NCBI GenBank assembly: GCA_963773405.1
Contig: CAVZAQ010000007.1
Span: forward strand, 118,224 to 182,223
Direction of reading: 5' to 3'
Origin: an uncultured Chloroflexia bacterium
Lineage (GTDB): Bacteria; Chloroflexota; Limnocylindria; QHBO01
Length of the DNA: 64,000 nt
The notes beneath the pieces are model-generated. The model was not told the origin of the DNA. It was given only the letters and a program-made list of their open reading frames with translations, and ran no database searches. Positions 6,397 through 22,312 of the stretch are shown in pieces. Both the position numbers and the translations under genes were made by a program. Every line of letters begins with the position of its first letter. Position 1 is the first letter of the stretch.

Positions 6397-7752
6397 TGAC
6401 CATGGACCGCCGCATCCTCGACGCCCTCGAGCGCCACCCCGACGTCACGGACTGGACCGTCCGGCGCCAGCACGCGGCTGGCGCCCAGGTGTACGTCACG
6501 GCCGGCACCCTCGAATCTGTCAGGCGGGTGGGTCGCGAGGCGTACGCGGTCGACGTGTACTGCGACCACCAGGTGGATGGCGAGCTGATGCGAGGCTCGG
6601 TGACCATCCCGGTGGGTCGCGACGAGCTCGCCGGATTCGATCACGCGCTCGCCGAGGCTGTGGTCATGGCCGGCCTCATCGACAACCGGCCGTGGCCGCT
6701 TCCCGAGCCCTGGCCCATCCCGGGGTGACCCTCGCCGATCCAGTGCTGCGGAGCCCGGAGGACGCCATGGCGTCCGCGCGTGCGGCGGTGGACCTGATCC
6801 AGGACCGCTGCAGTGGCGATCAGCAGATCCGGCTCAGCGCCGCAGAGCTGTTCCTCAGCGCCGTCGACGAGGAGATCGTCAACAGCCGCGGCCTGCGCGC
6901 CGAGGGACGTTCGACGAGCGCGCTCCTCGAGCTGGTCCTCCTTGCGCAGGGCGATGGCGAAGAGGTCGAGTTCTTCCGGCACGCCGAGGCGCGTCGGCTC
7001 GAGGACCTTCGCCTCGGCCGAGCTCGTCTCCGACGGCACGCGTCTCGTCCGTGACGCGGCCCGCGCGCGGATCCCCGACGTAGCCGGGTCGGCCCGGTCG
7101 TGGTCAGCGACATGGCCCTCGACCAGCTCCTGGGGCCGGACGTGATCGGCGACACGGGCGCCATCCTGATCCAGGCCGGGGCCGCGGCGGCATATGCCGG
7201 GCTGTCCCGGTGGGAGCTGGGCGAATCGGTGTTCTGGGGCAGGGAGCCGACCGGCGATCCGCTGCACCGTCCGGTCGAACGCGCGTCGCGCCTTTGGTGT
7301 CCTGGCCTACGAGTTCGACGAGGACGGCGTGCCCGGCCCAGGACCTGGCCGTGATCGAGGACGGCATCCTGCGCGCCCGCCCGGCGCCACGCAGCGCTAT
7401 GCCCACTACCTGGACCTGCCCGCCACGGGACGCCCCGGCGTCCCGGAGATCGCCCCCGGCCCGACCTCGTTCGCCGACCTCCTCGCGGGAGACGGGGCGG
7501 TCATCCACGTCGTCGCCTTCTCCTCGGCAAACGTCGAGGACCTCACCGGCAGACTTCGGGATGGAGATCCGCGTCGGATACGAGGTCGGGCCGGCAGGGA
7601 CCGTCCCGATCAAGGGCGGCTCCGTGACCGGGAATCTGTTCGAGGCACTCGCCGCCGCGCGGTTCTCGTCCGAGACGGGCGAGGACTCCGGATACGCCGG
7701 CCCGCGCGCCATCCGGTTCGAGGGGCTGCAGGTCACGGGCGCCGACGGCTGA
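6393..7752 (+). pseudogene. pmbA: PmbA/TldE-family partner of TldD, multiple frame changes as assembled
   Basis: The start overlaps the tldD stop (GTGATG). Protein-like segments run through at least four ORF-track frames (6330..6728, 6692..7054, 7100..7354, 7194..7997, 7210..7752) and end ...AIRFEGLQVTGADG. The order of segments is colinear with TldE-type proteins. Confidence 0.7.
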
Positions 7753-8387: not shown

Positions 8388-9164
8388 TCAGATCGATCGC
8401 TGGTACGAGCGGAAGGCCCGGGTCCCGAACCAGGTGGCAAGGATGGCCACCGCCACCAGCCCGCCCATTCGCGGCAGGACGAAGGACCAATCCGGATTCG
8501 CGGTGAGCGCCTCCCGCCCCGCCTCGACCGCCCAGTTCACCGGGTTGAACCTCGCGATGTCCGCCACCCAGGCCGGCACCAGGTTCAGCGGCATGAACGC
8601 CGCAGACAGGAACGTGAGCGGCATGGTGAGCAGGGTGTTGATCCCGATGACCGACTCCCGCTGGCGCAGCATGAGCGCCATGGCGTCCGAGACCGCGGCC
8701 ACGGTGGCTCCGACGAGCATGGCGCACACGGTGAGCGCCCCGAACCCGAGCAGCCCGCCCTCGAACCGGGCGCCGAGCAGCCACGCCAGCCCGCCGATGA
8801 GCAGCGCCTGCACGCCCAGCGCGACCAGCTCGTAGACGTTGAGGCCGGCGATGAGGGCGCTGCGGTGGATGGGCGTCGTCAGGAAGCGGTCCATGATCGA
8901 CCGATCCAGGTCCTCGATGATGGACATCCCGCTCCAGCCGCAGCCGAACAGGGCGGTCATCACCAGCACACCGGGCACGAGATAGTCGAGGTACGTGGCC
9001 GACGTCGAGAAACCCGGGATCTCGGCCACGCTGCGGAACAGCGCGCCGAACAGGAGCAGCCAGATGATCGGCTGGATGATGGCCATCATCACGAACCACG
9101 GCTGTCGCCACATGTAGCGCAGATGCCGGGTGGTGACGTAGGCGGTCTGGGAAATAGCAGTCAT
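8388..9164 (-). CDS. ABC-2 type exporter permease (DrrB-like)
   Basis: Internal ATG (MTAISQTAYVTTRHLRYMWRQPWFVMMAIIQPIIWLLLFG...) overlaps the upstream ATPase stop (ATGA). It has six TM segments, typical of the ABC-2 family. Confidence 0.85.
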   Translation of the reverse strand: MTAISQTAYVTTRHLRYMWRQPWFVMMAIIQPIIWLLLFGALFRSVAEIPGFSTSATYLDYLVPGVLVMTALFGCGWSGMSIIEDLDRSIMDRFLTTPIHRSALIAGLNVYELVALGVQALLIGGLAWLLGARFEGGLLGFGALTVCAMLVGATVAAVSDAMALMLRQRESVIGINTLLTMPLTFLSAAFMPLNLVPAWVADIARFNPVNWAVEAGREALTANPDWSFVLPRMGGLVAVAILATWFGTRAFRSYQRSI

Positions 9165-10159
9165 CGGGTTGCCTCCTGGCTCTCGGCCCGGTAGGCCCGG
9201 CCGGTGTGTCGAAGATAGACGTCGTCGAGCGAAGGACGGGCGACGGTGACCGATGCCACGCCCAGGCCCGGCGGCATCGAGGGCACTGAGCACCGTGGGG
9301 ACGGCCGATCGCGCCGTGCTCGGCCCGGGCGCGCAGCGTCCGGCCGTCCGCCATCGGCTCGCTCAGCCCGCGAACGCCGGCAAGGACGCGCGGTGGCGTC
9401 GCCGTTGCGGGCGGGCTCGCGGAGCTCGACGACGATCGCGTCGCCGTGGAGCTCCGCCTTGAGCTCCTCGGGCGTCCCGGTGGCCACGATCCGGCCCTGG
9501 TCCACGATCGCCAGGCGCCGGGCAAGGCGATCGGCTTCCTCGAGGTAGTGGGTGGTCAGCAGGATGGAGAGCCCGTCCTCGCGGGTCAGGCGCCCGATCT
9601 CCGCCCACAGCTCGGCGCGCGCCTCCGGGTCCAGACCGGTGGTGGGCTCATCGAGGAACAGCACGCTGGGCCGATGGACCAGGCCCATCGCCACGTCGAG
9701 CTTGCGCTGCATGCCGCCGGAGTAGGTCCGCACGATGCGGTCTGCCGCCTCGTGCAGGGCGAAGCGGTCGAGAAGCTCATCGATTCGGCGGGCGAGCTCG
9801 CGGCCGCCCATGCCATACACGCGTCCATGGAGGACCATGTTCTCCCGCCCGGTGGCCTCCACGTCGATGGCCGGCTTCTGGCTGACGGTGCCGATGACGC
9901 GCCGCACCCGGTCGGGCTCGCGCAGGACGTCGAAGCCGGCGACATGGGCCGTCCCCGAGTCGGGACGCGACAGGGTGGTGAGGATCTTGACGGTCGTCGA
10001 CTTCCCCGCGCCGTTGGGTCCCAGGAGGCCGAAGATGGTGCCCGGCTCGACGCTGATGCTCAGGCCGTCGAGCGCGCGAACGCCGCCGGGATAGGTCTTG
10101 ACCAGGTCGTGCGCCTCGATGGCCGGCGCGCCGGCCGCGGCACCTGGCTGGTTGGTCAT
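9161..10159 (-). CDS. ABC transporter ATP-binding protein (DrrA-like); C-terminal segment passes through two other frames and returns
   Basis: Walker A GPNGAGKST, signature YSGGMQRKL and Walker [13 protein letters not shown] are present. GAAGGAA lies upstream of the ATG. Between about 9250 and 9420 the homologous sequence is readable only by switching frames three times (net zero). Confidence 0.85.
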   Translation of the reverse strand: MTNQPGAAAGAPAIEAHDLVKTYPGGVRALDGLSISVEPGTIFGLLGPNGAGKSTTVKILTTLSRPDSGTAHVAGFDVLREPDRVRRVIGTVSQKPAIDVEATGRENMVLHGRVYGMGGRELARRIDELLDRFALHEAADRIVRTYSGGMQRKLDVAMGLVHRPSVLFLDEPTTGLDPEARAELWAEIGRLTREDGLSILLTTHYLEEADRLARRLAIVDQGRIVATGTPEELKAELHGDAIVVELREPARNGDATARPCRRSRAERADGGRPDAARPGRARRDRPSPRCSVPSMPPGLGVASVTVARPSLDDVYLRHTGRAYRAESQEATR

Positions 10160-10229
10160 TGGTCCGTTCCTTCGATTCGTTCCCCTGCATCCGCGGTCGT
10201 CGCGGTACACTGGTCGGCGATTACGCTTT

Positions 10230-10262
10230 GCCGATAAGTCTCTTAGCTGCTAAGATATCGGC
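10230..10262. promoter_or_regulatory. nested palindrome in the divergent ABC-exporter/marR promoter region (candidate MarR operator)
   Basis: Outer arms are GCCGATA...TATCGGC and inner arms are CTTAGC-T-GCTAAG (10242-10254). It lies in the unusually AT-rich spacer between starts 10159 (-) and 10285 (+). Confidence 0.4.
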
Positions 10263-10284
10263 ATCATGAGCGAATGGAAGACCG

Positions 10285-11424
10285 ATGTCAAGCACCGATG
10301 ACGCCACACGCCTGGCGGCGCTCCTGTCGCGGACCCTGGACGCCCACGCGGTCGTCCTCTACGAGGCCGTTGCCGAGCGCCTGGGCCTCAACGCCACCGA
10401 TCTCCTGGGCCTGCAGCTGATCGCCGGCGAGGGCGAGACCACCCCGGGTCGGCTGGCGGAGCTGGCAGGCATCACCACCGGGGCCATCACCGGGGTGCTG
10501 GACCGGCTCGAGAAGGCTCGGATCGTGGTGCGCGAGGCCGATCCCGACGACCGGCGCCGTGTGGTCGTGCGCCTCTCCCCCACCCGGCTGGCCGAGCTGA
10601 TCGCCGTGCTGGAGCCGATGGCGGCCTCGGCCGACTCGCTGCTCGCGGGTTACAAGCCCGCCGAGCGGGCGGCGATCACCGACTACCTGGGCAAGGCGGC
10701 CGCCGCGGCCTCCGAGGCGACGGTGCGCCTGCGGGCCAGCACCCGCGGTGGCTTCGTCAACGACACGTACTCTGCACCGCTGGGCGGCGCGACCCGCGGG
10801 CGCCTGGTATTCGTCACCGGCGGGCCACGCCTGTCGATGAACGTCGCACCATTCGGTCCGGGCGCCAGCGCGCGGATCATCGTGGAGCCGTCCGCCTCGC
10901 GCCTGTCTTTCGAGGGGGCAGCGGACGAGGGGCAGCTCCTCAGCGCCCACTTCACCGGGCCTTTGCCGGACTGCCGGGTCGCGGACGGCGTCGTCACCAT
11001 CCGCTACCGGCGCTCCCCGTTTTCCAGCCGCCGTGCGCGGGTGCGCCTCAACGGCTCCATTCCCTGGACGGTCGAGATCTCCGGCGGCGTCACCGACCTG
11101 ACCGGCGACATCGGCGTACCGCTGTCGGCCCTGGAGGTGTCGGGCGGTGCGAACCACATCAAGCTGGACCTTCCGGCGCCGGTCGGGACCGCCGGGGTGC
11201 GCGTCACCGGCGTGGTGTCGATCGCGGCGCTGACGCGGCCGCCGAGCGCTCCGGTTCACCTGCTTGTGGGCGGCGGTGTCAGCCACCTGCGCCTCGACGA
11301 GGTCACGGCACGCCAGGTCAGCGGCCGCCGCCAATACGAGTCGGGCGACTACGCCGGCACCCCGGACCGCTACGACATCGAGATCACTGGCGGCGCCTCC
11401 GACGTCCGCATCGTCCCCCGCTGA
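10285..11424 (+). CDS. MarR-family HTH regulator fused to a C-terminal beta-rich repeat domain (DUF4097/LiaG-like by pattern)
   Basis: The N-terminal ~150 aa are MarR-like (LGLNATDLLGLQLIA...PGRLAELAGITTGAITGVLDRLEKARIVVREADPDDRRRVVV). The C-terminal ~220 aa carry repeated xSGGxxxhxhD strands (ISGGVTDLTGDI, VSGGANHIKLDL, VGGGVSHLRLD, ITGGASDVRIV). Confidence 0.75.
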   Translation: MSSTDDATRLAALLSRTLDAHAVVLYEAVAERLGLNATDLLGLQLIAGEGETTPGRLAELAGITTGAITGVLDRLEKARIVVREADPDDRRRVVVRLSPTRLAELIAVLEPMAASADSLLAGYKPAERAAITDYLGKAAAAASEATVRLRASTRGGFVNDTYSAPLGGATRGRLVFVTGGPRLSMNVAPFGPGASARIIVEPSASRLSFEGAADEGQLLSAHFTGPLPDCRVADGVVTIRYRRSPFSSRRARVRLNGSIPWTVEISGGVTDLTGDIGVPLSALEVSGGANHIKLDLPAPVGTAGVRVTGVVSIAALTRPPSAPVHLLVGGGVSHLRLDEVTARQVSGRRQYESGDYAGTPDRYDIEITGGASDVRIVPR

Positions 11425-11460
11425 CCCTTCCTGACGCAGCCGCTCCGTCGCGCCACCCGC

Positions 11461-11607
11461 GACTCGTCAGGCGCTGATGTCACGCGCGTTATCGGCTCCA
11501 ACCTCCCACCGACTCGTCAGACGCTGATGTCCGTAGCGTTAGGTGAGTCAGGGCCCGTCATGTGCCGCTGAGTTCGGCAGCACGGTGGCCCATCTGCCGT
11601 ATAAATC
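11461..11607 (+). repeat. family-A repeat, copy 1: two 33-nt direct units plus a conserved core
   Basis: Unit 1 (11461-11492) is GACTCGTCAGGCGCTGATGTCACGCGCGTTAT. Unit 2 (11511-11543) is GACTCGTCAGACGCTGATGTCCGTAGCGTTAGG. The core is ...CCCGTCA-TGTGCCGC-TGAGTTCGGCAGCACGGTGGCC...CCGTATAAATC. It matches 17590-17734 in inverted orientation and 19314-19520. Confidence 0.65.
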
Positions 11608-11702
11608 AGGACTATCGAGCCAGTAGTCGAGGAGCCAGCAGGGCGCGACAGTCTGCTCAAGGGGCAATGGCTTGGAGCCATTGCGGATCTTGAGGCAGGA
11701 CG

Positions 11703-13445
11703 ATGTCGCGCGGCAGGGGGAGACCACGGATTCACGAAGCGCCGGGGTGTCCCAATCGGCTGCACGAGAAGTCGCACGTCGTGGCGATCGGGTTCCTCCG
11801 AGGCCGCGAGAGCGGAAGCCGGGTCGTGCGCCGCTGGCGCTGCTATCCGCTAACCGGCAGCCACCACGACTTCGCGCTGGTCGTCTCTGACGACATGCCG
11901 CTGACCGTTCCGCAACCCAATCCGCCGTGCCCGTTGCACCCTGACAGCCGCGTGAAGCGGAATGGGGCCTATGGCGCGGGCCGGGTTCACCGCCAGCGCT
12001 ACCGATGCCACCCGCCAGGCGGCAAGTCGCACGTCTTCACGCCGCCGCTGCCGCGCGGCTACGTCAGTCCCGAGGACGGTCCCTGCCCCCACTGCGGCGA
12101 GCTGCGGGGCGTCCACCACGGCGACCATGCCGCCGCCCGCAAGCACACCGCCACCGTGGCGATGATCGCGCAGGGGCTTGACAAGCTGTCGGCCGGCGAG
12201 CCCTACGCCCAGGTCGGGCTGTGGGCCTGGAAGCAGATGGACCGCGACCCGGCGGTACCGGCCCGGTCTTCGCCGCCGCCCAAGGAGCCCGAGCGGGTCT
12301 GGAACGAGGAGACCCAGGCCTACGAGGATCGCGAACCGGCCAAGCCCAAGCCGGTCAGCCTTGGCTCGCTCGACAGCCGCGCCGCCTGGCGAGTTGCGGC
12401 CAACTGGATCGAGGCCTTCGCGCCGGTCATCTCGGATCCGATCGACGCTGACCTGCGAGCGAGGGCTCTCGCCGAGCGGGCCCGCATCGATGCGGACCTC
12501 GCCGCCGGCCGTCCCCTCGAGTGTCCCCAGATCCTGGTCCTCGACGACGTGCCGGTCTGGTCCAAGGCCCAGCAGCGCCGCCGCCGCGAGGGCGGCTTCG
12601 TCCTGCTCATCGTCGGCGAGGTGGCCTGGGAGCAGCCGGCGCGCCCGCGCGAGGGCCAGCAACAGTGGGAGCCACGGCTCCGCCTGCGCCTGGTGCGCGC
12701 CATGCCCAAGAGCAACCTGGCAGCCTGGCGACTGACCTTCGACGAACTCGGCTACGCGCCCGACTTCGTGGTCGCGGACGGTGGGACCGGCATCGCTGCC
12801 GGGGTGACCTCCCATTTCGATCCGCAGCGCACCGTGTTCGTGCCGTCGCTGTGGCACGTGCGCAACTCGGTCCTGCGCGCGGTCGGCATGGAGGCCGCGT
12901 CCAACCTCACGCCGCCGATTGCCGAGCACGCCCGCCACCTGGCCCGCGGGGATGCGATCCTCGAGTCGGCCGGAGCCTGGAACGACTGGTGGGACCAGCT
13001 TGAGCAGATCGCCCTGGCCGAGGGCCTGTCGCGCGACAAGGTCCGCAACCAGCGGCGCAACTACCAGGACGCTCTCGCCAACGTCATTCCGCACCTCGCT
13101 GCCAACCCCGGCCTGCGCCTATCGATCGGCGGCCTGGAGACCAAGATCCGCGAGCGCGTGGATCGGGTCCTGACCCTGCGCACCCAGTTCGCCAACATCG
13201 AGCGCACCAATCACCTCTTCGACCTGGTGGTGGCCCGCGAGCACGGGGCCTTCACCCACTCCCACGAGGTCGAGGCGTTGCTGCGCGCGGACGCCGAGGG
13301 CCGTGTCGGCCCCGACGGGCGGTCCGGCCACGCCGTCAGCCTGCGGACCATCGACGACCCGCAGCCCGACTCCGGGCCGCGCTACCGGTCGCTGCGCGAC
13401 CCGAGCCTGATCGCGTCCCTCGCCGAGAGTCGGGGCCTGGCATGA
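11703..13445 (+). CDS. zinc-ribbon-containing DDE-transposase-like protein (distant IS256/Mutator/ISL3-type by motif pattern)
   Basis: 580-aa intact ORF. The N-terminus has two degenerate IS1/IS1595-style ribbons (CPNRLH...RRWRCYPLTGSHHDF and CPLHPDSRVKRNG...RQRYRCHPPGGKSHVF) plus CPHCGELRGVHHGDH. The remainder has ILVLDDVPVW, DFVVADGGTGIAAGV, SLWHVRNSV and FANIERTNHLF, spaced like D, D, H..RN and E of RNase-H-fold transposases. Confidence 0.55.
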   Translation: MSRGRGRPRIHEAPGCPNRLHEKSHVVAIGFLRGRESGSRVVRRWRCYPLTGSHHDFALVVSDDMPLTVPQPNPPCPLHPDSRVKRNGAYGAGRVHRQRYRCHPPGGKSHVFTPPLPRGYVSPEDGPCPHCGELRGVHHGDHAAARKHTATVAMIAQGLDKLSAGEPYAQVGLWAWKQMDRDPAVPARSSPPPKEPERVWNEETQAYEDREPAKPKPVSLGSLDSRAAWRVAANWIEAFAPVISDPIDADLRARALAERARIDADLAAGRPLECPQILVLDDVPVWSKAQQRRRREGGFVLLIVGEVAWEQPARPREGQQQWEPRLRLRLVRAMPKSNLAAWRLTFDELGYAPDFVVADGGTGIAAGVTSHFDPQRTVFVPSLWHVRNSVLRAVGMEAASNLTPPIAEHARHLARGDAILESAGAWNDWWDQLEQIALAEGLSRDKVRNQRRNYQDALANVIPHLAANPGLRLSIGGLETKIRERVDRVLTLRTQFANIERTNHLFDLVVAREHGAFTHSHEVEALLRADAEGRVGPDGRSGHAVSLRTIDDPQPDSGPRYRSLRDPSLIASLAESRGLA

Positions 13446-15079
13446 GCGCCATCAGCCGGGCCCGGCTGTGGGCCAAGGCCCGCTTCCTCGTCTTCGATGT
13501 GGAGACGACCCGCCCACCCGAGCGCGGAGCCCCGCTGCGCATCGTGTCGATCGCCGGGATCAGCGTCCGCAACGGGCAGGTCGTCGGGCGCTTCGTCACC
13601 GACTACGTGAACCCCGGCTGCCCGATCGACGAGAAGTCGCAGAAGATCCACAAGATCAGCGATGCCCTGGTGGCGGGTGCGGCGACCTTCGCCGCCATCG
13701 CCAAGCCGCTCATGACCCTGCTGCATCCGGACCTGTCTGAGCGGACGTTCTTCGTCGCTCACAACGTCTCGTTCGACGCACCGGTCCTCCGCAACGAGCT
13801 GGATCGGGTCGGCGAGAGGATGCCCGAACTGCCGGTGCTCGACACCATGGCCCTGATGTCGGTGGCAGGCGTCAGTGGCGAGGGCGGACGCCGCAGCCTC
13901 AAGGCGCTGTGCTCGACCCTCGGCATCGACCTGTCGCGGCACCACCTGGCGGCCTCCTTCGACGCCGAGGCCACTGCGCAGGCGCTCATCGAGCTGCTCA
14001 ACCGGGCGGCCGACCAGGGGCACGACGACCTCGATGCGCTCCTCGACCTGCTCGGCGCTCACACGACCCGCTCGCTCACGTTCATTGGGCGCTTCGCGGA
14101 TGCCGAAGCGCCGCTGGAGCCGGAGATCAGCGCCGAGCACATCGCGACCCACGCCACGATCCTGCCGCGCCGGCCCGGCAAGCGGGTCCTCGCCGGCTGG
14201 CTGGCTGACACGGAGAAGTGCTCCGGTCTCCTGTGCGGCGGGCTCGTCGCCCGGGTAGCCGTGGCGGAGATGCCACCTGCCGATCTGCTCAGCCACCTCC
14301 TTCCACGTCTCCGTGCGCTTGCCACCACGGCTCCCGCCGCCCAGGTGGCCACCTACCTCGAGGCGATGCTGCCCCTGCTGCCCCACCTGCCGCCGGCCAG
14401 CCGCGGTCGTCCGGCCTTCGCCCGGCGCACCGCGGCGCTGGCCCTGGAGACCGATCTCGGCCGGCTCCTGGATCCACTTGGCCGCTGCACCGGCCCGACC
14501 TCCTGTCCGGCCTGCCGGCGCGGCGATCCCTGTCCGCTCGATGTCTGGCGCTTGGCGCTGGCCGAGCTGCTCATCGGCTCGGGTTCCGGCCGCAAGGGTC
14601 GGCGCACCGGCTTCGTCAGCGTCGGTCCCGGCCGCCTGGAAGGTGCCTACGCCTCGCTGGTTCGCGGCCGCCATCACCACATCGCGGACCTCGCCTTGCG
14701 GCTCGTCCACCGCCAGTGGATCTCGGTCGGCCAGCGTGACCGGGCCGGTCAGCTTGTGCGCGAGGCGCTGGCGGCCGGCTGTGCCGACCCGGAGATCATC
14801 GGCACCCACGCCGCGCACATCGGCCGGCGAGGGACGCCCGAGGCGCTGGCCGAGGCCATCGCCATCTGCGATGCGGCTCTCGAGCACCGCGATGGCAGCA
14901 CCGACGAGGCGTGGAGCGCGCTCGAGGCGCGCCGCTCACAGCTGCGCAGTCGTGCCGCGCGCTTCCGGGTCCGCTACGAGGACGAGCGCGACGAGGAGGG
15001 CAACCTAGTGCCGAAGCGTCTCCACCACCCGGCCGCACCGCTCCGCCGCCCACCTCGCTTCCAGCCCCGCGCTGCCTGA
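13442..15079 (+). CDS. DEDDh (DnaQ/epsilon-like) 3'-5' exonuclease domain protein with a ~350-aa uncharacterised C-terminal region
   Basis: 545-aa intact ORF whose ATG overlaps the upstream stop (ATGA at 13442-13445). ExoI is FLVFDVETT, ExoII is FVAHNVSFDAPVL and ExoIII is HHLAASFDAEATAQAL. The C-terminal part is Ala/Leu/Arg-rich with CTGPTSCPACRRGDPC and has no recognised family. Confidence 0.8.
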   Translation: MSAISRARLWAKARFLVFDVETTRPPERGAPLRIVSIAGISVRNGQVVGRFVTDYVNPGCPIDEKSQKIHKISDALVAGAATFAAIAKPLMTLLHPDLSERTFFVAHNVSFDAPVLRNELDRVGERMPELPVLDTMALMSVAGVSGEGGRRSLKALCSTLGIDLSRHHLAASFDAEATAQALIELLNRAADQGHDDLDALLDLLGAHTTRSLTFIGRFADAEAPLEPEISAEHIATHATILPRRPGKRVLAGWLADTEKCSGLLCGGLVARVAVAEMPPADLLSHLLPRLRALATTAPAAQVATYLEAMLPLLPHLPPASRGRPAFARRTAALALETDLGRLLDPLGRCTGPTSCPACRRGDPCPLDVWRLALAELLIGSGSGRKGRRTGFVSVGPGRLEGAYASLVRGRHHHIADLALRLVHRQWISVGQRDRAGQLVREALAAGCADPEIIGTHAAHIGRRGTPEALAEAIAICDAALEHRDGSTDEAWSALEARRSQLRSRAARFRVRYEDERDEEGNLVPKRLHHPAAPLRRPPRFQPRAA

Positions 15080-15115
15080 GGCACAGCCTCTACTTCTTTC
15101 GCGACGAAGCACGAG

Positions 15116-16844
15116 CTACTTGGCGGAGGCCTCACCTATCCAGACATTCGCCCCATCCGTGGTGGGCTCGAGGAGCAGGACGCCGCCAGGCAAGAGCACA
15201 CCCTGGTTGCCGGGGCTCTCTCCCGTGATGGCGAGCCTGTTCCAGCGCTGGCCGTCAAAGGATTCCCACGCCCCACCACCGAACTGCACGGCGAGGATCC
15301 TGGTCCCATCACTCACGAGCATGCCGTCCGCTCCTCGGCCCACCGGGGCTTGCGAAACGCCCAGCGGCGCGTAGTTGGGCACCAGGCGCCAGCGCTGGCC
15401 GTCGTTCGACTGCCACCAGACCTCTGCACCCGGGGCGGCAAACAGGCTGCCGTGGGCAATCCAGCCCTCCGGGCCGACGAGGAGGCCATCGGCACCCCAC
15501 GGCAGGCCCTGGGCATCGGGATCGGGCAGGGCCACGCTGGTCCAGTGCAGCCCATCAGGCGACGTCAGTGCGACTCCGGTCAGCGCGTCAGGTGACTCGG
15601 CGGAAGGCACCGCGCCCACTGCCAGATACCCGGTTGCGCTGCCCGTCAGTCCACCCAGCGCGAAGCCACCGGGCAAGGCAGTAGTCGGGCAGTGCGGTCC
15701 AGGTGATGCCATCGGTCGAGATCGCCGCGACCGCTGCGCGCCAGGACGCCGAGGCGATGACGCCGGCGGGGCCGGAGGCGAGTATCGGTCGCTCGTTTGA
15801 CTGGAGGCCGGCCTGAGCGATGACCGCGGGACCCGGATGGGCGGCCCAGGTCCGCCCGTCGCTCGAGGTCCACGACTGTGCAGGCACCGTGGTCAGGCCG
15901 TCCGCCCAGCCGGCGCCGGTGAGGGCCACGAGGCCGCCGCCGGGTAGCTCGGTGATGTCGAAGACGATCGTGCCCGAGCCGAAGACCGATGGGTCGAGCG
16001 CGGTCCAGGTGATCCCATCCGGCGAGGTCCAGACCGGGGTCCAGCTCGTGTCGCCGGCGGCCTGGTCCTGGCCGAGAGCGATGAAACCACCCGACCAGCG
16101 GATGACCTTGCGGACCTGGGCCAGCGGATCATTGACGGCCAGCTTGCGCCAGGTCAGGCCGGTCCAGGTGGCGTCGGGTTCCGTCGGGGCGTTGGTCGTG
16201 AAGCCGTCGAGCGCGGGCACCGCGGACGGAGTCGGGCTGCCGCTCGGCGCGGGCTCAGGTGCCTCGATCGACATGCTCTGCCGATAGCCGGCCGCGATGA
16301 AGTAGGTCTGGTTGCCGGCGACCACCAGGAGCGCGCGGTCGAACGAGGGCGGGATGGTGGCCGATGGGTCGGGCGGGGGCGGCGGTCCTTTCGGAATCTC
16401 GCCGTCGATGTAGCAGACCCAGGCCGGATCGCTATCGGCATACCTGGCCACCTGCGGGTTGTCCTTGACCGCAGTCATGTTCCGCACGATGCCGACTGTC
16501 GTCTGAAACGCACCGGCCACCGTGCCGTTGTAGTCGCGGGCAAGCGGGCTGCACGGCGTCTCGCCTGGGCTGCCCGAAGCGCTGGGACTGGGACCGACCG
16601 GGATCGGTGCCGGTGGCAGCAGGCCGATGAGGACCGCGACCAGCAGGGCGGCGGCCACCACGGCTGCCGCGCCGACGCTGGGCAGGATCCAGCTGGCCGA
16701 CAGTCGCGCCGTCCAGGCACGCCGCTGCGGGATGTGGCGGACGCCGGACATGCCCCGGGCGAGCAAGTCGGGCGGCGCTTCCCCGGAGCCCTCCGCGTGG
16801 AGGTAGGCGCGCACCTCGGTCTCGAAGCGGGCCTGCTCGTTCAT
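15116..16844 (-). pseudogene. membrane-anchored anti-sigma-like protein with extracytoplasmic Asp-box (BNR-like) repeats, one frame change near 15700
   Basis: The start overlaps the sigma gene stop (ATGA). It has a single TM (ILPSVGAAAVVAAALLVAVLIGLL). Six SxDGxxW repeats are split over ORFs 15588..16844 and 15116..15712 (TSPDGITWT, SSDGRTWA, STDGITWT | TSPDGLHWT, SNDGQRWR, SFDGQRWN). Confidence 0.7.
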
Positions 16845-17401
16845 GCCGCACCTCCCTCGGGCGCCAGGCGCCCATCGGCCTCGAGCGCAGCGCGCAGGGC
16901 GGCCTCGGCGCGCGACAGGCGCGACTTGGCGGTCCCCAGCCGCAGGCCGAGCGTCTCGGCCACCTCGGGCACTGAGCTGCCCAGGTAGTAGCGCAGGACG
17001 ATGACCGCGCGATGCTCGGCGCTCAGGGTGGTGAAGGCGCGGTTCAGCGACTCGCGCTCGACGACCGCCACCGAGGCGTCCGCCGTGGCCAGCGCGTCGG
17101 GCTCCAGCTCCTGCTCGGCGCGGGCATGCCGCGAGCGGCGGGCGAGGTTCAGGCAGGCGTTCGTCAGGACCCGCCGCAGCCAGGCCTCGAAGCGCTCCGG
17201 GTCGCGCAGCCCCGGCAGGTCGCGCCAGGCGTTGATCATCGTCTCCTGCACGGCGTCCTCCGCCAGCACCGGATCGTGGAGGATGAGCCTGGCGGTGGCA
17301 TACAGGCGATCGAGCCGGGCGGCGATCAGGTCCTCGAAGGCCGTCTCGTCGCCGGCGCGCGCCCGGATCACCAGATCACGCTCCAACTTGGGTTCCCCCA
17401 C
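16841..17401 (-). CDS. ECF (group 4) sigma-70 factor
   Basis: 186-aa intact ORF. Region 2 is AEDAVQETMINAWRDL...FEAWLRRVLTNACLNLAR and region 4 is AVIVLRYYLGSSVPEVAETLGLRLGTAKSRLSRA. Confidence 0.9.
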   Translation of the reverse strand: MGEPKLERDLVIRARAGDETAFEDLIAARLDRLYATARLILHDPVLAEDAVQETMINAWRDLPGLRDPERFEAWLRRVLTNACLNLARRSRHARAEQELEPDALATADASVAVVERESLNRAFTTLSAEHRAVIVLRYYLGSSVPEVAETLGLRLGTAKSRLSRAEAALRAALEADGRLAPEGGAA

Positions 17402-17589
17402 TCCTTCCTACTGGCATAGGCACCGCGGAAGCCCGTTTCGTTCCATCGCCTGTCTCGAATGTCGAGTAGAACCCCGGTCGGCGCAAGGGGCCAGGCGGCC
17501 TGTTGCAGGGAGATGCTCGGCCACCAGCGACACGGGCGGGCGAAGCGGCAGACGGAGAGCGGGCCGCTGGCCGATCCGGAATCGCCCGG

Positions 17590-17734
17590 GATTTATACGG
17601 AATCAGGCCATCGTGCTGCCGAACTCATGTGCCGCTGACGGGGTCGCGGCCGAGCGTGGCAGGGCACGGTTGGGGCGCCATCGGGCTGACTGAACCTGCC
17701 TAACGCTGCTGTGGTCCGCAGGTGACAAGTCAGG
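17590..17734 (-). repeat. family-A repeat, copy 2 (inverted relative to copy 1)
   Basis: GATTTATACGG...CATCGTGCTGCCGAACTCATGTGCCGCTGACGGGG...CCTAACGCTGCTGTGGTCCGCAGGTGACAAGTCAGG. The reverse complement aligns to 11511-11607 with a ~45-nt insertion. Confidence 0.65.
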
Positions 17735-17749
17735 TCCGCCAGCAGCGTT
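17702..17749 (-). terminator. possible intrinsic (I-shaped) terminator hairpin downstream of gene 17771..18244
   Basis: A 10-bp perfect stem, AACGCTGCTG (17702-17711) with CAGCAGCGTT (17740-17749), begins about 20 nt after the stop of the minus-strand gene. There is no U-tract. Half of the stem belongs to the family-A terminal unit. Confidence 0.3.
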
Positions 17750-17770
17750 CCTCGAGCGCCATGCGGACCC

Positions 17771-18244
17771 TCAGACCGGGACCCGGAGGTGAATCGGCTG
17801 GCGGACCTGCACGTCGGTATGGCCGTTCCGAGACGCCGAGATGACGATCGTGTCGACAACGGCGTCCGAATGGATCTCACTGTACCGCACGGTCACTTCG
17901 GCCTGGTGTGAGATCAGCTCCAGGCGCTCGATGATCGGGTACGGACAGTGACGGTGCCGGCAGTAGTCCAGCGGATCGGTTCGTGCGACGGTCACCTCAC
18001 GCATCTCCATCGGCAGCGAAGACCTGACGTGCGGCGCCTCGGCGAACAGCACGGCCAGGGCACGGGACGCGTCGTCGTGGCATCGAAACGGGTCGACGCC
18101 CTCGCAGGCCAGCGGCAGGCTGGAAGGCAGGACCTCCAGGTGGTTGGCCCAGCTCCAGGTTGCCGCACCGATGGCGACCACGACGACGGCAGCGGCAGCC
18201 AACGCCAGCAATCGCCGACGAGCGAGTCTCACTGGCGTGGACAT
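17771..18244 (-). CDS. hypothetical membrane-anchored Cys-rich protein
   Basis: MSTPVRLARRRLLALAAAAVVVVAIG... provides an N-terminal anchor. The extracytoplasmic part has six Cys (PLACEGVDPFRCHDD, DYCRHRHCPYP). It overlaps the end of anti-sigma 2 and is probably the third gene of that operon. Confidence 0.6.
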   Translation of the reverse strand: MSTPVRLARRRLLALAAAAVVVVAIGAATWSWANHLEVLPSSLPLACEGVDPFRCHDDASRALAVLFAEAPHVRSSLPMEMREVTVARTDPLDYCRHRHCPYPIIERLELISHQAEVTVRYSEIHSDAVVDTIVISASRNGHTDVQVRQPIHLRVPV

Positions 18245-18766
18245 CTGGCATCGATGGGCCAACCCATGCCGGTCACGCCGCCAGTCGCGTCGTCAAGGAC
18301 GAAGTAGCCGAAGGACGAGTCTGGCAGCTCGCGGCCACTCGGCGGGCCCCGCCCCACGAACGGGCCACAGGCGCGAACGGTCCAGGTGATGGAGCCGCCG
18401 CCTCCGCCGGCCGCGACGCTCAGGATGTCGACCGATGGCACCGGCTCGTCGCCGGGCCACAGGGCTCCTCCGTCGTGGAGCATCTCGGTCACCTTCGAGG
18501 CGGCATCGGCTGCGGTCATCCTCGGGTGGAGGCCGGCGGGCACGTCGACGGTGTAGGCGTCGGCCGCGCGACCGCCCACCAGCAGGAAGGCAACGATGGC
18601 CGCGATCACCAGCACGACGGCCACCAGGACCAGCACCCAGCGCGGGGTGCGGTACGGCGCGGGCTCCGTCCGAGCTCGGCCAGCGGACGGCGCAGCCGCC
18701 GGACGGCAGCCCATCCACCAGTGCGGCCAGGCGGGTATCGAGCGCGGGGTCGGCTCGGTAGGTCAT
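18229..18766 (-). pseudogene. anti-sigma-like single-pass membrane protein, one frame change near 18670-18710
   Basis: MTYRADPALDTRLAALVDGLP... begins at an ATGA overlap with the sigma stop (frame of ORF 18293..18934). The TM and extracytoplasmic parts (RWVLVLVAVVLVIAAIVAFLLVGG...) are in ORF 18229..18714. Confidence 0.6.
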
Positions 18767-19236
18767 GGCTCCAGCTCCCGCCGCAGGAGAGCCTTGTCGC
18801 GGCTGATCCAGCTGCCGACGGTCCCGGCCGGCACGCCCAGCATCGACCCGACCTCTGCCTGGGTGTAGCCGTCGACCACGTGGAGCACCAGTGCGGCCCG
18901 ATGGCGCGGCTCCAGCGTTCCCACCGCGGCCCACAGGTCCGGATCGGTCGCCGGCTGCCAGGCCGGCGACGGCGCCATCGGCCTCTGCAGGAGCGACCAG
19001 CGACGGCGACGCCGCAGCTCGTTGAAGGCCAGCCGCAGACCGATGGTGTAGAGCCAGGCCCGGACATCGGCTCCGTCAAAGCGAGCCCAGGCGCGGTAGG
19101 CGCGAAGGTACGCCTCCTGCGCGGCATCCTCGGCCGCGTGCGGGTCGCGCAGGACCAGGGTCAGGCGCTGCAGGAGCGCCGGGTAGTGGGGTGCCACGGC
19201 TGCCTCGAACGTCGCTGGGTCCACGGACTCCTCCAT
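18763..19236 (-). CDS. ECF sigma-70 factor (second copy)
   Basis: Internal ATG (MEESVDPATFE...) is preceded by GGGAGGAG. Region 2 is AEDAAQEAYLRAYRAWARF...AWLYTIGLRLAFNELRR and region 4 is ALVLHVVDGYTQAEVGSMLGVPAGTVGSWISR. Confidence 0.85.
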   Translation of the reverse strand: MEESVDPATFEAAVAPHYPALLQRLTLVLRDPHAAEDAAQEAYLRAYRAWARFDGADVRAWLYTIGLRLAFNELRRRRRWSLLQRPMAPSPAWQPATDPDLWAAVGTLEPRHRAALVLHVVDGYTQAEVGSMLGVPAGTVGSWISRDKALLRRELEP

Positions 19237-19313
19237 GGGCTCCTCCCGCACCAGACAACACCCGATGCCTGCCGATTGTTGCACCGCCGCGGGCGGCCCG
19301 TCGTCGCGTTCGC

Positions 19314-19520
19314 GACTCGTCAGGCGCGGATGACGGGCGCGTTATGCGCGGTCGCCGGCGCCGCGCGTCGTCAGGCGCGGCTGTCTGCAGCGTTAGGCGG
19401 GCCAACGGGCTGCGAGGCTGCTCATCGCGGCCCGCTCCGAGCGTGGAGCGCGCCCCGCAGACGGCGGCAGACGAGGGAGAACCCGCCTAACGCTGCTGTG
19501 ACGCGCAAGTGACGAGTAGG
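19314..19520. mobile_element. family-A MITE-like element (~207 bp), copy 3
   Basis: Two direct 33-nt units lie at 19314-19346 and 19365-19397 (GACTCGTCAGGCGCGG...GCGTTATG and GCGTCGTCAGGCGCGG...AGCGTTAGG). An inverted unit, CCTAACGCTGCTGTGACGCGCAAGTGACGAGTAGG, sits at the other end. The interior is related to 17640-17700 and lacks the TATAAAT core. Confidence 0.5.
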
Positions 19521-19581
19521 AGGGATCGCGCGGCTGCGGCGGGGACCGTGCAGAGCGTCGCGGGAGCGGAGGAGCGGCGGG

Positions 19582-20328
19582 TCAGGCGGCGCCGGGTCGA
19601 GCCAGCAGGGGCCGACCGCCGGGCTCCAGAGCACGCGCTCGTCGGCGGTGATGGCGTAGACGCCGTACCCGGGATGGCGCGCGACCCAGTCGAGGCCGGC
19701 AAGGCCCATGGCGAAGGCCGTGGTGGCGTAGGCATCGGCGTAGGTCAGGCTGGGCCCGACGACGGTCACGCTGCAGCAGCTCGCGCGGCGCCTCGTCGCT
19801 GCCGGGCACCCGGATATGGTCGCCGCGCTCGTAGGCCGCGGAGGTCGCAACCGCCCCGCGGCGCACCTCGAGAACCCGGGCCACCCGGTCGGCGATGAAC
19901 GGGATGGCGGATCCCGACGCGCCATCCGCGACCCGGCCGCGGGCTCGCCGCGAACCAGGATGTCGCCGCCGGCGTTGATCGCGAAATTCCGCGCCCCGGC
20001 GGCATCCAGCAGGAGCGCCGCCTCGTCCACGGACCAGCCCTTCACCACGCCGGACGGGTCGAGCGCGCCATCCGCGCGGTGGTGTCGGGCATCGAAGATA
20101 GCCATCGGATTGGGCGGCCAGCTCGTCACAGAGGGCCAGCACCTGGCGGACCTCCAGGCTGGCCTCGCTCTCGCGAAGCTCGCCACGGCCGATCCGGCTC
20201 ACCTCGCTCTCGGATCGATACGTGCTGAAGCGCTCATCGACCCCGCGGAACCAGGCGAAAGCATCGTCGAGCGCGCTGAGCGGCACCCATTCGTCGCGCA
20301 CCCGGATGCCCACGGCGGTGCCCATCAC
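19582..20328 (-). pseudogene. apbE: FAD:protein FMN transferase (ApbE family), several frame changes
   Basis: RRVEQVMGTAVGIRV is the characteristic N-terminal MGT motif. Further segments (DPSGVVKGWSVDEAALLL...NAGGDI, AVATSAAYERG, YADAYATTAFAMG) are spread over ORFs 19582..20328, 19422..20186 and 19766..20005. Confidence 0.75.
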
Positions 20329-20391
20329 CTGCTCGACGCGGCGCAGCGCAAGACGTGGCGTCGGGCATGGGTGCGATGCCCGACCGGCAGC

Positions 20392-20925
20392 TCAGCCATT
20401 CGACTTGGTCCAGGATCGACTGCACCGACTGCGCGTACCCATAGGAGGTGTAGGTCGCGCCGCTGATCAGGTCGATCTGCGCGCTCTGTGCGTGCAGCAC
20501 CTCCTGGCGCAGGATGGGGCGCGACATAGCTGCTGATCTGCGCCGATAGCTGCCGGTCGTTCGGCAGCTGCAGCGCCTGGACGTCGGTGATCTTCCCGTC
20601 GGAGAAGGTGGTCTGCAGCTGCACCGTTCCGAACCGGGTCTGGAGGGCCGGGCCGGTGACCGTTCCGTTCGCCTTCCCGCCGCCCTGCTGGGGCGCCGGG
20701 GTCGGCGGTGCTGCCCCGGGGTTGGAGACCGTGCCGCCCGTGCCGCCGGTGTTGCCATCGCCGTGCCCGCGCCTCCGTTCCCGTGCCGTTGCCGCCCGTC
20801 GATCCCCTGCCGGGCACGATCTGTACCGGGTTGTCCGGCGTCTTGAAGCTGAAGAGCAGTGCCAGGCCAAGGGCGGTGATGGCCGCGGCAATGACGCCGC
20901 GTTTGGGTAGCGTTGGCATGAGCAT
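20392..20925 (-). pseudogene. FMN-binding domain lipoprotein/membrane protein (ApbE substrate type), frame changes; 3' end uncertain
   Basis: The signal/anchor is MLMPTLPKRGVIAAAITALGLALLFS. The domain end ...IDLISGATYTSYGYAQSVQSILD carries the D-x-x-S-G-A-T flavinylation motif. Pieces lie in ORFs 20467..20925, 20325..21005 and 20234..21127. Confidence 0.65.
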
Positions 20926-20931
20926 CGATCC

Positions 20932-22312
20932 CTAGTAGCTGAAGCGTTCCATGTGGACCTGCACGTCGGGGACGCGGAGGGCGCGCAGGCTGCGCCGCAC
21001 CGCATTCATCATCGGAATCGGCCCGCAGACATAGACGTCCCGGTGCCGCACGTCGGGGACCAGCTTCCCGAGCTCGCGCAGGGCGCAGGGGATCGCGGCG
21101 CATGTCACGTCCGCCGCGCTCGCCCACCAGATAGTGGATCCGGTCGCCGCGTTCGCGGACCAGCTGGTCGAGCTCCTCGCTTGAAGACCACGTCGTTCCA
21201 GTCGGAGGCGCGGTACAGGACGGTTACCGCGCCGTGCCCCAGGGGGAGCTCCTCGAGCAGGGCCCGCAGCGGGGTGATCCCGATCCCGCCGGCAACCAGG
21301 AGCACGCGCGATCGGTGGCGCAGCGCGCCGGTCAGGGCGCCATACGGTCCCTCCGCGAAGACGGGCGTCCCCGGCTTGAGGGCCAGGAGCCGGCGGGAGT
21401 AATCACCCAGGTCCTTGATGGTGATCCGGAGCTGCTCGCCGTTGGGCGCCGAGGAGAGTGAGAAGGGATGGGCCCGCCACCAACCGTCGCCCGCCAGGAA
21501 GCGCCAGATGAAGTACTGGCCGGCCCGGCAGGCCAGCTGGTCGAGATCGCGTCCGGTGACGTAGACGGAGGCGACGCCCGGACCCTCCGGGACCACGGCG
21601 GCCACCCGCAGCCGATGGCGCAGCGAGAGGGCAATCGGCTGGCCAATGCGGAAGAGGAGGATCAAGCGCTGCAGCGGCGATGTACAGCGCGATCCAGAAG
21701 ACGCGCGCCACCGGGTCACTGGTGAAGTCGGTTCCCACCGCCAGCTCGTGGCCGAAGCCCAGCGCGATGGCCAGGTAGGCGTACAGGTGCAGCCCGTACC
21801 AGGTCTCGTAGCTGACGCGGCGCTGCACGGCCCGCATGGACATGACCGCCACCATCACCAGCAGCCCCAGGCCGACCGTGCCCATCAGCACGTACGGGTA
21901 GGTGGTGAGGAGCGTCCAGGCCTCGACCAGCACCGGAGTGGAGAGCCCCATCGCATAGCCGGTGGTGGTGAGCACCGCGTGCCCCACAAGGAGCCAGAGG
22001 ACGCTGAAGCCGATCCATCGATGCCAGACCGCAAGGCGCTCCATGCCCAGCTGCTGGTCCAGCCACGGACTGACGCGACATGAGGACGAGCTGCACCAGG
22101 GCCAGGTAGGTCCCGACCAGCGCCGTGACCTGACCAGCGGCGGTGAGCGCGCCGGACAGCGTCGTAAGCTGGTCGAGACCGCCATGCCGGACCCAGAGGC
22201 CCACCACCAGCGCGCCGACACCGAGGAGGAGTCCCCCGATGTCGGCGGGCCGGATGGGCCAGATCCGTGGAACCGGGACCCGGTTCAGGCGACGGCTGAT
22301 GCTCGGCTGCAT
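20932..22312 (-). pseudogene. ferric-reductase-like transmembrane protein with FAD/NAD(P)-binding domains, several frame changes
   Basis: The heme-His TM region is HRWIGFSVLWLLVGHAVL...LHLYAYLAIALGFGHE. The FAD motif is RAHPFSLSS and the NAD motif is LLVAGGIGITP. The C-terminus VPDVRHRDVYVCGPIPMMNAVRRSL...HMERFSY-stop was read by hand. Pieces lie in ORFs 21716..22312, 21403..22221 and 21105..21719 plus an unlisted frame. Confidence 0.75.

Follow-up and report, generated by a model that had tools for sequence, protein, structure and literature searches.

A unit transposon with a putative Mutator/IS256-like transposase, a conserved exonuclease gene and exchangeable cargo, inserted in a host repeat of an uncultured Chloroflexia bacterium

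Within a 64,000-nucleotide stretch of contig CAVZAQ010000007.1 from an uncultured Chloroflexia bacterium (the window), positions 11569-17627 are a unit (non-composite) transposon of 6,059 bp. The element is delimited by terminal inverted repeats (TIRs) and flanked by an 8-bp target-site duplication (TSD), a relative preserves its empty site, and many independent copies occur in other genomes. Its core consists of two open reading frames (ORFs), ORF1 and ORF2, that encode a putative transposase and a protein with an exonuclease domain, and it carries an anti-sigma/sigma pair as cargo. Taken as a whole, the locus is very probably a member of an undescribed Mutator/IS256-type transposon family that inserted into a repeat of its host. 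An initial annotation, made from the sequence of the window, had described a segment at 11461-17734 bracketed by long imperfect inverted repeats and interpreted it as a transposon with ~100-150-bp structured ends and regulatory cargo. The observation is confirmed and the interpretation partly supported: an ORF1/ORF2 core with sigma/anti-sigma cargo is indeed a transposon, but the mobile unit is 11569-17627, and its ends are TIRs of 38-39 bp.

Results

A unit transposon bounded by short terminal inverted repeats

The element and its duplicated target comprise the following features, in window coordinates.

11561..11568, no strand: left TSD copy, TGTGCCGC, identical to 17628-17635 and present once in the empty site L115 (see below)
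11569..11607, + strand: left TIR, 39 bp, TGAGTTCGGCAGCACGGTGGCCCATCTGCCGTATAAATC, with the conserved tip TGAGTTCGGCA
11703..13445, + strand: ORF1, 580 aa, putative divergent DDE transposase of Mutator/IS256-like type; N-terminal region rich in Cys and His
13442..15079, + strand: ORF2, 545 aa, DEDDh (DnaQ/epsilon-like) 3'-5' exonuclease domain and helical C-terminal domain
15116..16844, - strand: cargo, frameshifted gene for an anti-sigma-like membrane protein whose repeat domain is propeller-like (ORFs 15588-16844 and 15116-15712)
16841..17401, - strand: cargo, extracytoplasmic function (ECF)-type sigma factor, 186 aa, intact, with Sigma70_r2 and Sigma70_r4_2 domains
17590..17627, - strand: right TIR, 38 bp, reverse complement TGAGTTCGGCAGCACGATGGCCTGATTCCGTATAAATC
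17628..17635, no strand: right TSD copy, TGTGCCGC

The repeat blocks that had been listed are all present where they were placed, and they exceed chance. The local alignment of 11554-11607 with the reverse complement of 17590-17642 scores 52, compared with maxima of 29 for shuffled sequences and 31 for random pairs from the window. The block GAGTTCGGCAGCACGRTGGCC occurs exactly twice in the 64 kb, once per strand, where 0.02 occurrences are expected. The enclosed genes also agree with the first description: ORF1 and ORF2 are followed, after a 36-bp gap, by convergent anti-sigma-like and ECF sigma genes. What had been described as one pair of arms divides into two parts, in that the inner 38-39 bp are the transposon ends and everything beyond the 8-bp repeat is host repeat.

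The TIRs of the window, 39 and 38 bp long and written TGAGTTCGGCAGCAC...CCGTATAAATC, abut a perfect 8-bp TSD, TGTGCCGC. We compared 19 copies of the element, 18 from other genomes together with that of the window. Their arms share a sharp outer edge, TGAGTTCGGCA, with CGGC at positions 7-10 invariant in 38 of 38 arms, and the tips read 5'-TGAG...CTCA-3', without a terminal C. From this edge the TIRs extend ~38 bp inward, to a G(G/A)TAAA(A/T)-like motif that takes forms such as GGTAAAA, GATAAAA and GCTAAAT, or CGTATAAATC in the window, none of them an exact TGTAAA. In 13 of 21 inverted-repeat pairs the arms differ by exactly 1 nt, the left being the longer, and the window likewise has 39 versus 38.

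The conserved tip fixes the register in which a TSD should be sought. At this register, the flanking direct repeats match at 8 of 8 positions in 16 of the 19 copies, whereas at control registers 8, 16 and 24 nt further out no copy (0/19) shows a perfect match and the mean is 2.2-2.6 matches of 8. Because the identity of the flanks is found at one register and is absent from the controls, we conclude that these repeats are target-site duplications, for which the initial annotation had proposed looking across multiple copies. Their position also accounts for an oddity of the arm alignment: the short block ATGTGCCGCTGA, which keeps the same orientation in the left and right arms instead of being inverted, looks "flipped" between the arms because the 8-bp direct repeat sits outside the TIRs.

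Empty sites assign the outer blocks of the arms to a host repeat

The sequence beyond the TSD contains three related boxes, here called A, B and R, and a complete unit of the same kind lies nearby.

11460..11493, + strand: box A of the host A-B...R repeat, a direct copy of box B 50 nt away, collinear with the box A at 19312
11510..11543, + strand: box B of the host repeat, ending AGCGTTAGG, of the form GTCAGA-N15-CGTTAG; target context
17699..17740, - strand: box R of the host repeat, aligning in the same orientation to box R of the intact unit with a score of 49
19312..19522, + strand: intact paralogous A-B-88 nt-R repeat, with the spacing of the reconstructed pre-insertion site (88 versus 88 nt)

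The 33-nt unit that had been taken for a terminal repeat is present as direct copies at 11460 and 11510, which are 84% identical, and as an inverted copy at 17699-17740; a third copy of the motif is found at 19313, outside the segment originally noted. There, at 19312-19522, box A is followed 50 nt on by box B and then by an inverted box R, with only 88 nt enclosed. If 11569-17635 is deleted from the window, so that the element and one copy of the TSD are lost, the halves at 11460-11568 and 17636-17740 form an A-B-88 nt-R unit (25 + 63 = 88 nt) that aligns collinearly with 19312-19522 over ~215 nt. A palindromic repeat of ~215 bp was thus in place before the element landed in its 88-nt spacer, and this repeat is the source of the outer arm blocks. 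The insertion is off-centre in the spacer, with box B 25 nt and box R 63 nt away, which accounts for the "extra ~45 nt" of the right arm.

A pattern scan of metagenome contigs provided the comparison of empty and occupied sites that had been suggested for this locus. Two contigs, L115 and L108, run through the insertion point without a break and are 87% identical to the reconstructed site. Both flanks of L115 are syntenic, and this contig is considered orthologous because the left flank and the right-hand gene of the window both match it. It reads ...GGTCA TGTGCCGC CGAAGG..., with TGTGCCGC present once and no TIR anywhere. In both empty sites, boxes A, B and R are all kept, and 88 or 89 nt separate B from R with nothing else between the boxes. 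Since the 33-nt units and the blocks GTCAG and CCCGTCA are left behind in the empty sites, they belong to the target and not, as had been supposed, to the element.

Independent A-B...R copies in metagenomes tell the same story, with a spacer that is variable in sequence, is always 87-89 nt long and never encloses genes. By the initial annotation's own criterion, its claim would fail if the arms occurred elsewhere only as solitary short elements that never pair around coding DNA; this is how the A-B-88 nt-R units occur, and for the outer arms the claim fails. Its alternative, two independent insertions of a small repeat element in opposite orientation, is not supported either, the outer blocks being two halves of one split unit. 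More generally, a transposon inside a palindromic host repeat can mimic one with long structured ends.

These data also bear on the idea that the whole of 11461-17734 is the transposon and that the 33-nt units are multiple transposase-binding sites within Tn7- or Mu-like ends. Boxes A and B on the left and R on the right are real, their left/right asymmetry resembles that of Tn7 or Mu ends, and the A-B...R miniature at 19312-19522 could be read as a miniature inverted-repeat transposable element (MITE) derived from the same element. However, the 8-bp TSD lies inside the frame of the 33-nt units and abuts the 38-39-bp TIRs, the empty sites and the independent copies hold the boxes at a nearly fixed spacing without any genes, and neither AGCGTTAGG nor CCGTATAAATC occurs in any of 36 related ORF1 loci (0/36 for each), among which those with enough flank have a short TIR and a TSD. 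We regard this explanation as extremely improbable. As a separate candidate, a MITE at 19312-19522 was rejected: the unit has no TIR, and the TSD falls inside the A-B...R frame.

The host repeat has several features of its own. The ~215-bp unit, with two direct 34-nt boxes and an inverted R, is dispersed and was also found in L062, L063, L050, L070, L113, L126 and L129. Its spacer holds a conserved internal YGAGCGTG, and every box has the form GTCA(G/C)N-N15-CGTTA(G/T), a sequence pattern that resembles an ECF-type -35/-10 pair. An Rfam scan of 9000-21000 at E ≤ 1 returned two sub-threshold chance matches only, and the RNA folding of the repeat is not distinctive (z = -1.1 and -2.7). To the left of the insertion site, 10285-11424 encodes a 379-aa protein in which a MarR domain covers only residues ~35-100, followed by a long C-terminal remainder with no family match.

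Related copies are widespread, mainly in Actinomycetota

At least 178 ORF1 homologues were identified, many of them on short metagenome contigs. Among 1.84 billion representatives clustered at 50% identity, 753 clusters belong to the family at E ≤ 1e-3, and the stricter limit of E ≤ 1e-30 leaves 173. Homologues in RefSeq are annotated as "hypothetical protein." A scan of species-representative genomes yielded the 36 ORF1 loci used here for comparison, whose hosts are mainly Actinomycetota, including Acidimicrobiia, Geodermatophilaceae, Cellulomonadaceae, Micromonosporaceae, Nitriliruptoraceae and others. Cultured carriers include Geodermatophilus chilensis B12, Trujillonella humicola SYSU BS000539, Salinilacustrithrix flava EGI L10123 and Modestobacter sp. 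NPDC049651. Five carriers (L001, L013, L019, L020 and L031) have record titles that name Acidobacteria, Saccharibacteria, Chloroflexi/Chloroflexia or Bifidobacterium metagenome-assembled genomes (MAGs). These labels reflect either transfer beyond that phylum or mis-binned contigs. A tblastn search of ORF1 against 72,556 plasmids and 50,697 phages gave no match.

Where the flanks are long enough, in about 20 loci, ORF1 and ORF2 lie between the arms of a strong inverted repeat (local scores 47-100). The left arm is 60-100 bp upstream of ORF1, although in a few copies the distance reaches ~360 bp, and the right arm follows ORF2 at 0.5-6 kb. One Acidimicrobiia MAG, JAENWR01, contains three copies (L024, L026 and L030) on three contigs. 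Two of these are 92% identical and have different flanks, with similarity beginning ~290 bp upstream of ORF1, and the third is 73% identical to the other two; therefore, at least two sublineages coexist in this genome. In the closest relative of the window element, ORF1 is 74% identical, and the contigs L037 (4,527 bp) and L038 start and end within a few bases of the TIR tips, a sign that the flanks vary or that the community contains several copies. Over ORF1-ORF2, L037 matches the window at 74% identity, and the TIRs of the two are similar, yet from the ORF2 stop to the right TIR they have nothing in common.

The insertions also reveal what the element selects as a target. Flanking sequences conform to a palindrome, TCA-N8-TGA, with agreement in 9-12 of 16 insertions at positions -3 to -1 and in 11-12 of 16 at positions +9 to +11. 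The left TCA is already in the empty sites, and the right TGA is also in L108. As these triplets are present before insertion, they represent a target preference, and the element prefers the palindromic target TCA-N8-TGA.

Several insertions adjoin sequence that is itself like a TIR tip, and the flanks of L007, L006 and L004 look like degenerate TIR tips. In L018:15975-16100, a right TIR is followed by an 8-bp TSD (ACTCGGGC) and then by a solo 57-nt copy of the left TIR that is 97% identical. This is the arrangement expected if the element inserted beside an end already in place, or if the junction is of the tandem or circle type, and it is the sole hint of a circular intermediate with abutted inverted repeats.

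ORF1 resembles Mutator/IS256-type transposases in fold and motifs

ORF1 escapes detection by sequence models. It is matched by none of PF00872 (Transposase_mut), PF10551 (MULE), NF033543, NF048019, NF041731 and NF033572, nor by the ISKra4, ISH6 or IS1249 models of NCBIfam, whereas a genuine IS256-family protein run against the same library as a positive control matched NF033543 with E = 2.7e-114. A sequence search of the PDB with a profile of the ORF1 alignment gave nothing meaningful. What Pfam returned for 22 ORF1 homologues at E ≤ 10 was scattered single-member noise, and these hits were set aside.

An AlphaFold2 model built on the family alignment has a mean predicted local distance difference test score (pLDDT) of 76, with the core mostly above 90. 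Its elements follow the order beta1-3 (three long strands), alpha, beta4, alpha, beta5 and a helical insertion. In a Foldseek search, the only significant PDB match is the strand-transfer complex of the ISCth4 transposase (6xgx; E = 1.9e-4, probability 1.00, 296 columns), and the next match has E = 0.25. A weak hhalign alignment (probability 7.8%) to IS256-family proteins pairs W342 with W212, D359 with D233 (DG..G), G363 with G237, H385 with H257 (C/DxxH), E479 with E341 (TTNxIE) and F496 with F357, and these residues are invariant in both families. Against a single IS256 sequence, hhalign finds the right region with a probability of 0.75%. D281, D359 and E479 are invariant in the 22 ORF1 homologues, and their spacing (D281-78-D359-120-E479) compares with 66 and 108 in IS256.

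The modelled fold and the congruence of motifs suggest that ORF1 is a transposase, specifically a very divergent DDE enzyme of the Mutator/IS256 superfamily with an RNase-H fold. We propose D281, D359 and E479 as its catalytic triad and the histidine at position 385 as a C/DxxH-type residue. Judging from its sequence, the N-terminal region, which is rich in Cys and His, may be a DNA-binding module that recognises the TIRs. Longer ORF1 variants of 640-680 aa occur in Nocardioides, Phycicoccus and Geodermatophilus (L010:8889-10838 and L012:10001-12007; P0064, P0071, P0076 and P0081); in these, ~100 additional residues separate the catalytic core from the N-terminal Cys/His region.

ORF2 is a conserved exonuclease-domain partner of ORF1

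The N-terminal domain of ORF2 matches RNase_T (PF00929) with E = 2.9e-21, and its fold superimposes on the E. coli Pol III epsilon subunit with a template modelling (TM) score of 0.82 and a root-mean-square deviation (rmsd) of 3.0 Å. All five catalytic residues of the Exo I-III motifs (D19, E21, D112, H168 and D174) are invariant. The helical C-terminal half contains an invariant cluster of four cysteines (C349/355/358/364). The fold matches recorded for this C-terminal domain all trace back to the exonuclease domain, and the extended alignment to DinG has an rmsd of ~20 Å.

In the window, the start of ORF2 overlaps the stop of ORF1 (ATGA), and an ORF2 homologue lies directly downstream of ORF1 in nearly all loci that have sequence there. 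The gene is kept beside ORF1 down to ~30% identity, while everything downstream is exchanged. In L019, the N-terminal exonuclease part of ORF2 is apparently missing. Strict co-conservation, the gene overlap and the intact active site together point to a role for ORF2, and we think that it probably takes part in transposition in some way, although with limited confidence. The stronger proposal, that a DEDDh exonuclease is the obligatory partner of a divergent Mutator-like DDE transposase and that the pair defines a new prokaryotic transposon family, is advanced tentatively, as somewhat more doubtful than not.

The competing view is that ORF1 alone mobilises the element and ORF2 is a very ancient, tightly linked passenger without a part in transposition, for instance an anti-defence or repair gene, or that the element moves by cut-and-paste. 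Eukaryotic relatives of the Mutator and hAT types, which also generate 8-9-bp TSDs, use cut-and-paste, and the apparent loss of the exonuclease part in L019 also speaks for this view. So does the organisation of the characterised IS256-family elements, all of which have a single gene (PMC3942029, PMC7780238). Against it stand the retention of ORF2 across divergent loci, a pattern typical of core genes and not of cargo, together with the ORF1/ORF2 overlap and the invariance of the catalytic residues. We consider a passenger role for ORF2, or cut-and-paste movement, unlikely.

The space between ORF2 and the right TIR is a cargo slot

Across copies, the backbone of left TIR, ORF1, ORF2 and right TIR is conserved, and the cargo between the ORF2 stop and the right TIR, 0.8-6 kb in size, differs in nearly every copy. 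An all-against-all BLAST of the cargo ORFs revealed no third conserved core gene.

The sigma factor carried by the window element contains Sigma70_r2 (E = 2.5e-15) and Sigma70_r4_2 (E = 7e-12) domains and matches TIGR02937 (sigma70-ECF) with 86 bits, above the cut-off; its score of 124 bits with the SigE-family model TIGR02983 is below the cut-off of 141.55. The anti-sigma-like gene overlaps the stop of the sigma gene at one end and is separated from ORF2 by the 36-bp gap at the other. It contains ~150-nt repeats, and S-x-DG-x-x-W propeller-type repeats (about six blades) carry on in another frame past its frameshift, which reflects either gene decay (a pseudogene) or an assembly error. In the 36-locus comparison, the sigma/anti-sigma pair was inside no other copy of the element.

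Other copies carry different genes. L025:12926-18331 holds a type III restriction-modification system composed of an N6_N4 methylase, a ResIII helicase and a RAMA-domain protein, and L027:13306-17527 encodes two large proteins that are homologous by BLAST to the L025 methylase and helicase. With restriction-modification cargo in two distant copies, it follows that the element can move defence systems. Elsewhere the slot contains a zinc-type dehydrogenase and a DUF6326 protein (L017), a tetratricopeptide repeat (TPR) protein (L004), or lipoprotein-like or secreted proteins, and in the closest relative, L037, a DUF7555 gene takes the place of the sigma/anti-sigma pair. The cargo of L003 includes a nested IS3-family transposase at 5226-6467 (NF033516, E = 8e-50; rve domain), and the TSD of this copy matches at 5 of 8 positions.

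The cargo gene adjoining the right TIR usually reads inward, as does the sigma operon of the window. Could the arms then be two copies of a promoter/operator shared by the ORF1 and ECF sigma operons, and not the ends of a mobile element? Both arms lie 5' of inward-pointing operons, their last bases read TATAAAT, similar to a -10 box, the inner block CCGTATAAATC likewise looks like a -10 element, and the cargo genes of most copies are oriented accordingly. Nevertheless, perfect 8-bp repeats flank 16 of the 19 copies, an empty site exists, the right arm is present whatever gene adjoins it, including in copies with oppositely reading cargo, and a consensus scan detected neither a sigma-70-type promoter nor a terminator in either arm. 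A shared regulatory region in place of transposon ends is thus scarcely credible. By analogy, the TIRs may have a promoter function in addition, since those of the IS256 family are reported to contain promoter elements (PMC7780238); from its sequence, the TATAAAT-like inner motif of the TIR may double as an inward -10 element.

Discussion

The copies show that the element inserts as a unit bounded by its TIRs, that the target is cut with an 8-bp stagger and that palindromic sites are preferred. ISCth4 and IS256 move by copy-out/paste-in, with 8-bp TSDs and a subterminal TGTAAA in their TIRs (PMC7780238), and prokaryotic Mutator-like elements have inverted repeats of 18-39 bp, direct repeats of 8-9 bp and circles with abutted inverted repeats (PMC3942029). 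By analogy, the element may follow a copy-out/paste-in pathway through a circular intermediate, a prospect that we consider evenly balanced. As in IS256 and ISCth4, one element end would be nicked and joined to the other end, replication would then yield a circle with abutted ends, and the circle would integrate via staggered cuts 8 bp apart. ORF2 would serve as an accessory 3'-5' exonuclease, probably at a replication step, at a 3'-end or flap-processing step, or in repair of the donor or target. Candidate activities are trimming of a 3' flap or end at the junction or TSD-repair step, or support of copy-out replication.

A number of observations weigh against the interpretation put forward here. 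No Pfam or NCBIfam transposase model matches ORF1 or any of its 22 homologues at E ≤ 10. The Foldseek match extends over just a part of the multidomain ORF1 model, and its global TM-score is low for that reason (0.27/0.42). The hhalign comparison to a profile of 11 IS256-family proteins is weak (probability 7.8%, pairwise E = 0.0045, 162 columns), and D281 falls outside it, having been assigned by its position on the first strand and its invariance. Among the 19 copies, three have no clean TSD (L003 with 5/8, L017 with 2/8 and L026 with 2/8), and the element is present as a single copy within the 64-kb window. That copy is not pristine, the anti-sigma-like gene being frameshifted near nt ~15,680 (region ~15,650-15,712). 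No circle junction or excision product was observed for the pathway, which is drawn by analogy. Finally, we know of no IS256-family element that needs an exonuclease, so a role for ORF2 is without precedent, and ORF2 could instead be tightly linked cargo.

If the ORF1/ORF2 pair is obligatory, 3'-end or flap processing, or the recruitment of replication, would be built into the element itself, and the family would lend itself to carrying regulators and restriction-modification systems among Actinomycetota. Work on ORF2 in the cultured carriers could uncover an accessory step new to copy-out/paste-in or to cut-and-paste transposition. The family is one that current annotation misses. Its clean cargo slot, which accommodates sigma/anti-sigma genes, type III restriction-modification systems and oxidoreductases, is relevant to gene flow among soil and aquatic Actinomycetota, and the family may be useful as a genetic tool for high-GC bacteria.

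Comparison with known transposons

With respect to bacterial transposons with TIRs and TSDs in general, the element has the expected TIRs, a TSD of fixed length, an empty site and multiple copies in one genome. The nearest relatives appear to be in the IS256 family (IS256, ISCth4; "p-MULT 1"), with which it has in common 8-bp TSDs and TIRs that measure 30-40 bp and have a conserved tip; its subterminal motif of the (G)TAAA type may correspond to the TGTAAA of IS256-family TIRs (PMC7780238). The likeness extends to the fold, the ISCth4 transposase being the only significant structural neighbour of ORF1, and, in the weak hhalign alignment, to the DG..G motif, the C/DxxH histidine and the glutamate of TTNxIE, all of which align to invariant ORF1 residues. 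Thus, fold, TIR length (18-39 bp) and TSD length (8-9 bp) agree with an IS256/Mutator assignment, whereas sequence models and single-gene organisation do not. IS256-family members are single-gene insertion sequences (ISs) of ~1.3-1.5 kb, while the element here has two core genes and a cargo slot; the family's sequence models do not match ORF1, which has a long Cys/His-rich N-terminal region; and the target is a palindrome, TCA-N8-TGA, in a GC context, as opposed to the AT-rich targets of the IS256 family.

Additional genes beside a Mutator-like transposase have parallels elsewhere. Maize MuDR combines a Mutator transposase gene, mudrA, with an element-encoded helper, mudrB, between TIRs, which recalls the two-gene core described here; it differs in being eukaryotic and in having ~200-bp TIRs, 9-bp TSDs, convergent genes and a helper protein, MURB, that is not an exonuclease. 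Among prokaryotes, the ISAzba1/ISKra4 group, TnGBS and the integrative and conjugative elements (ICEs) of Mycoplasma likewise pair Mutator-superfamily transposases with additional ORFs and have 18-39-bp inverted repeats and 8-9-bp direct repeats, some of them in Actinobacteria (Guerillot et al. 2014, PMC3942029). Their accessory genes are recombinases, conjugation genes or unknown ORFs, with no exonuclease partner mentioned in the sections consulted, and they are reported to have a conserved terminal C where the tips here are 5'-TGAG...CTCA-3'.

Unit transposons that are Tn3- or Tn7-like in the broad sense offer a likeness of a different kind, a conserved transposition module with variable cargo beside one end, cargo that includes regulators and restriction-modification systems. 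They differ from the present element in that its transposase is of an unrelated type, its TSD is 8 and not 5 bp, and it has no resolvase, TnsC-like ATPase or target selector. We know of no precedent for a DEDDh exonuclease conserved as the partner of an IS256/Mutator-type transposon, or of any bacterial transposon, and no description of an exonuclease-partnered IS or transposon was found in the searchable literature, with ISfinder lying outside the search. On these comparisons, we class the element as a new transposon family within the Mutator/IS256 superfamily, set apart by its conserved exonuclease partner and its cargo slot.

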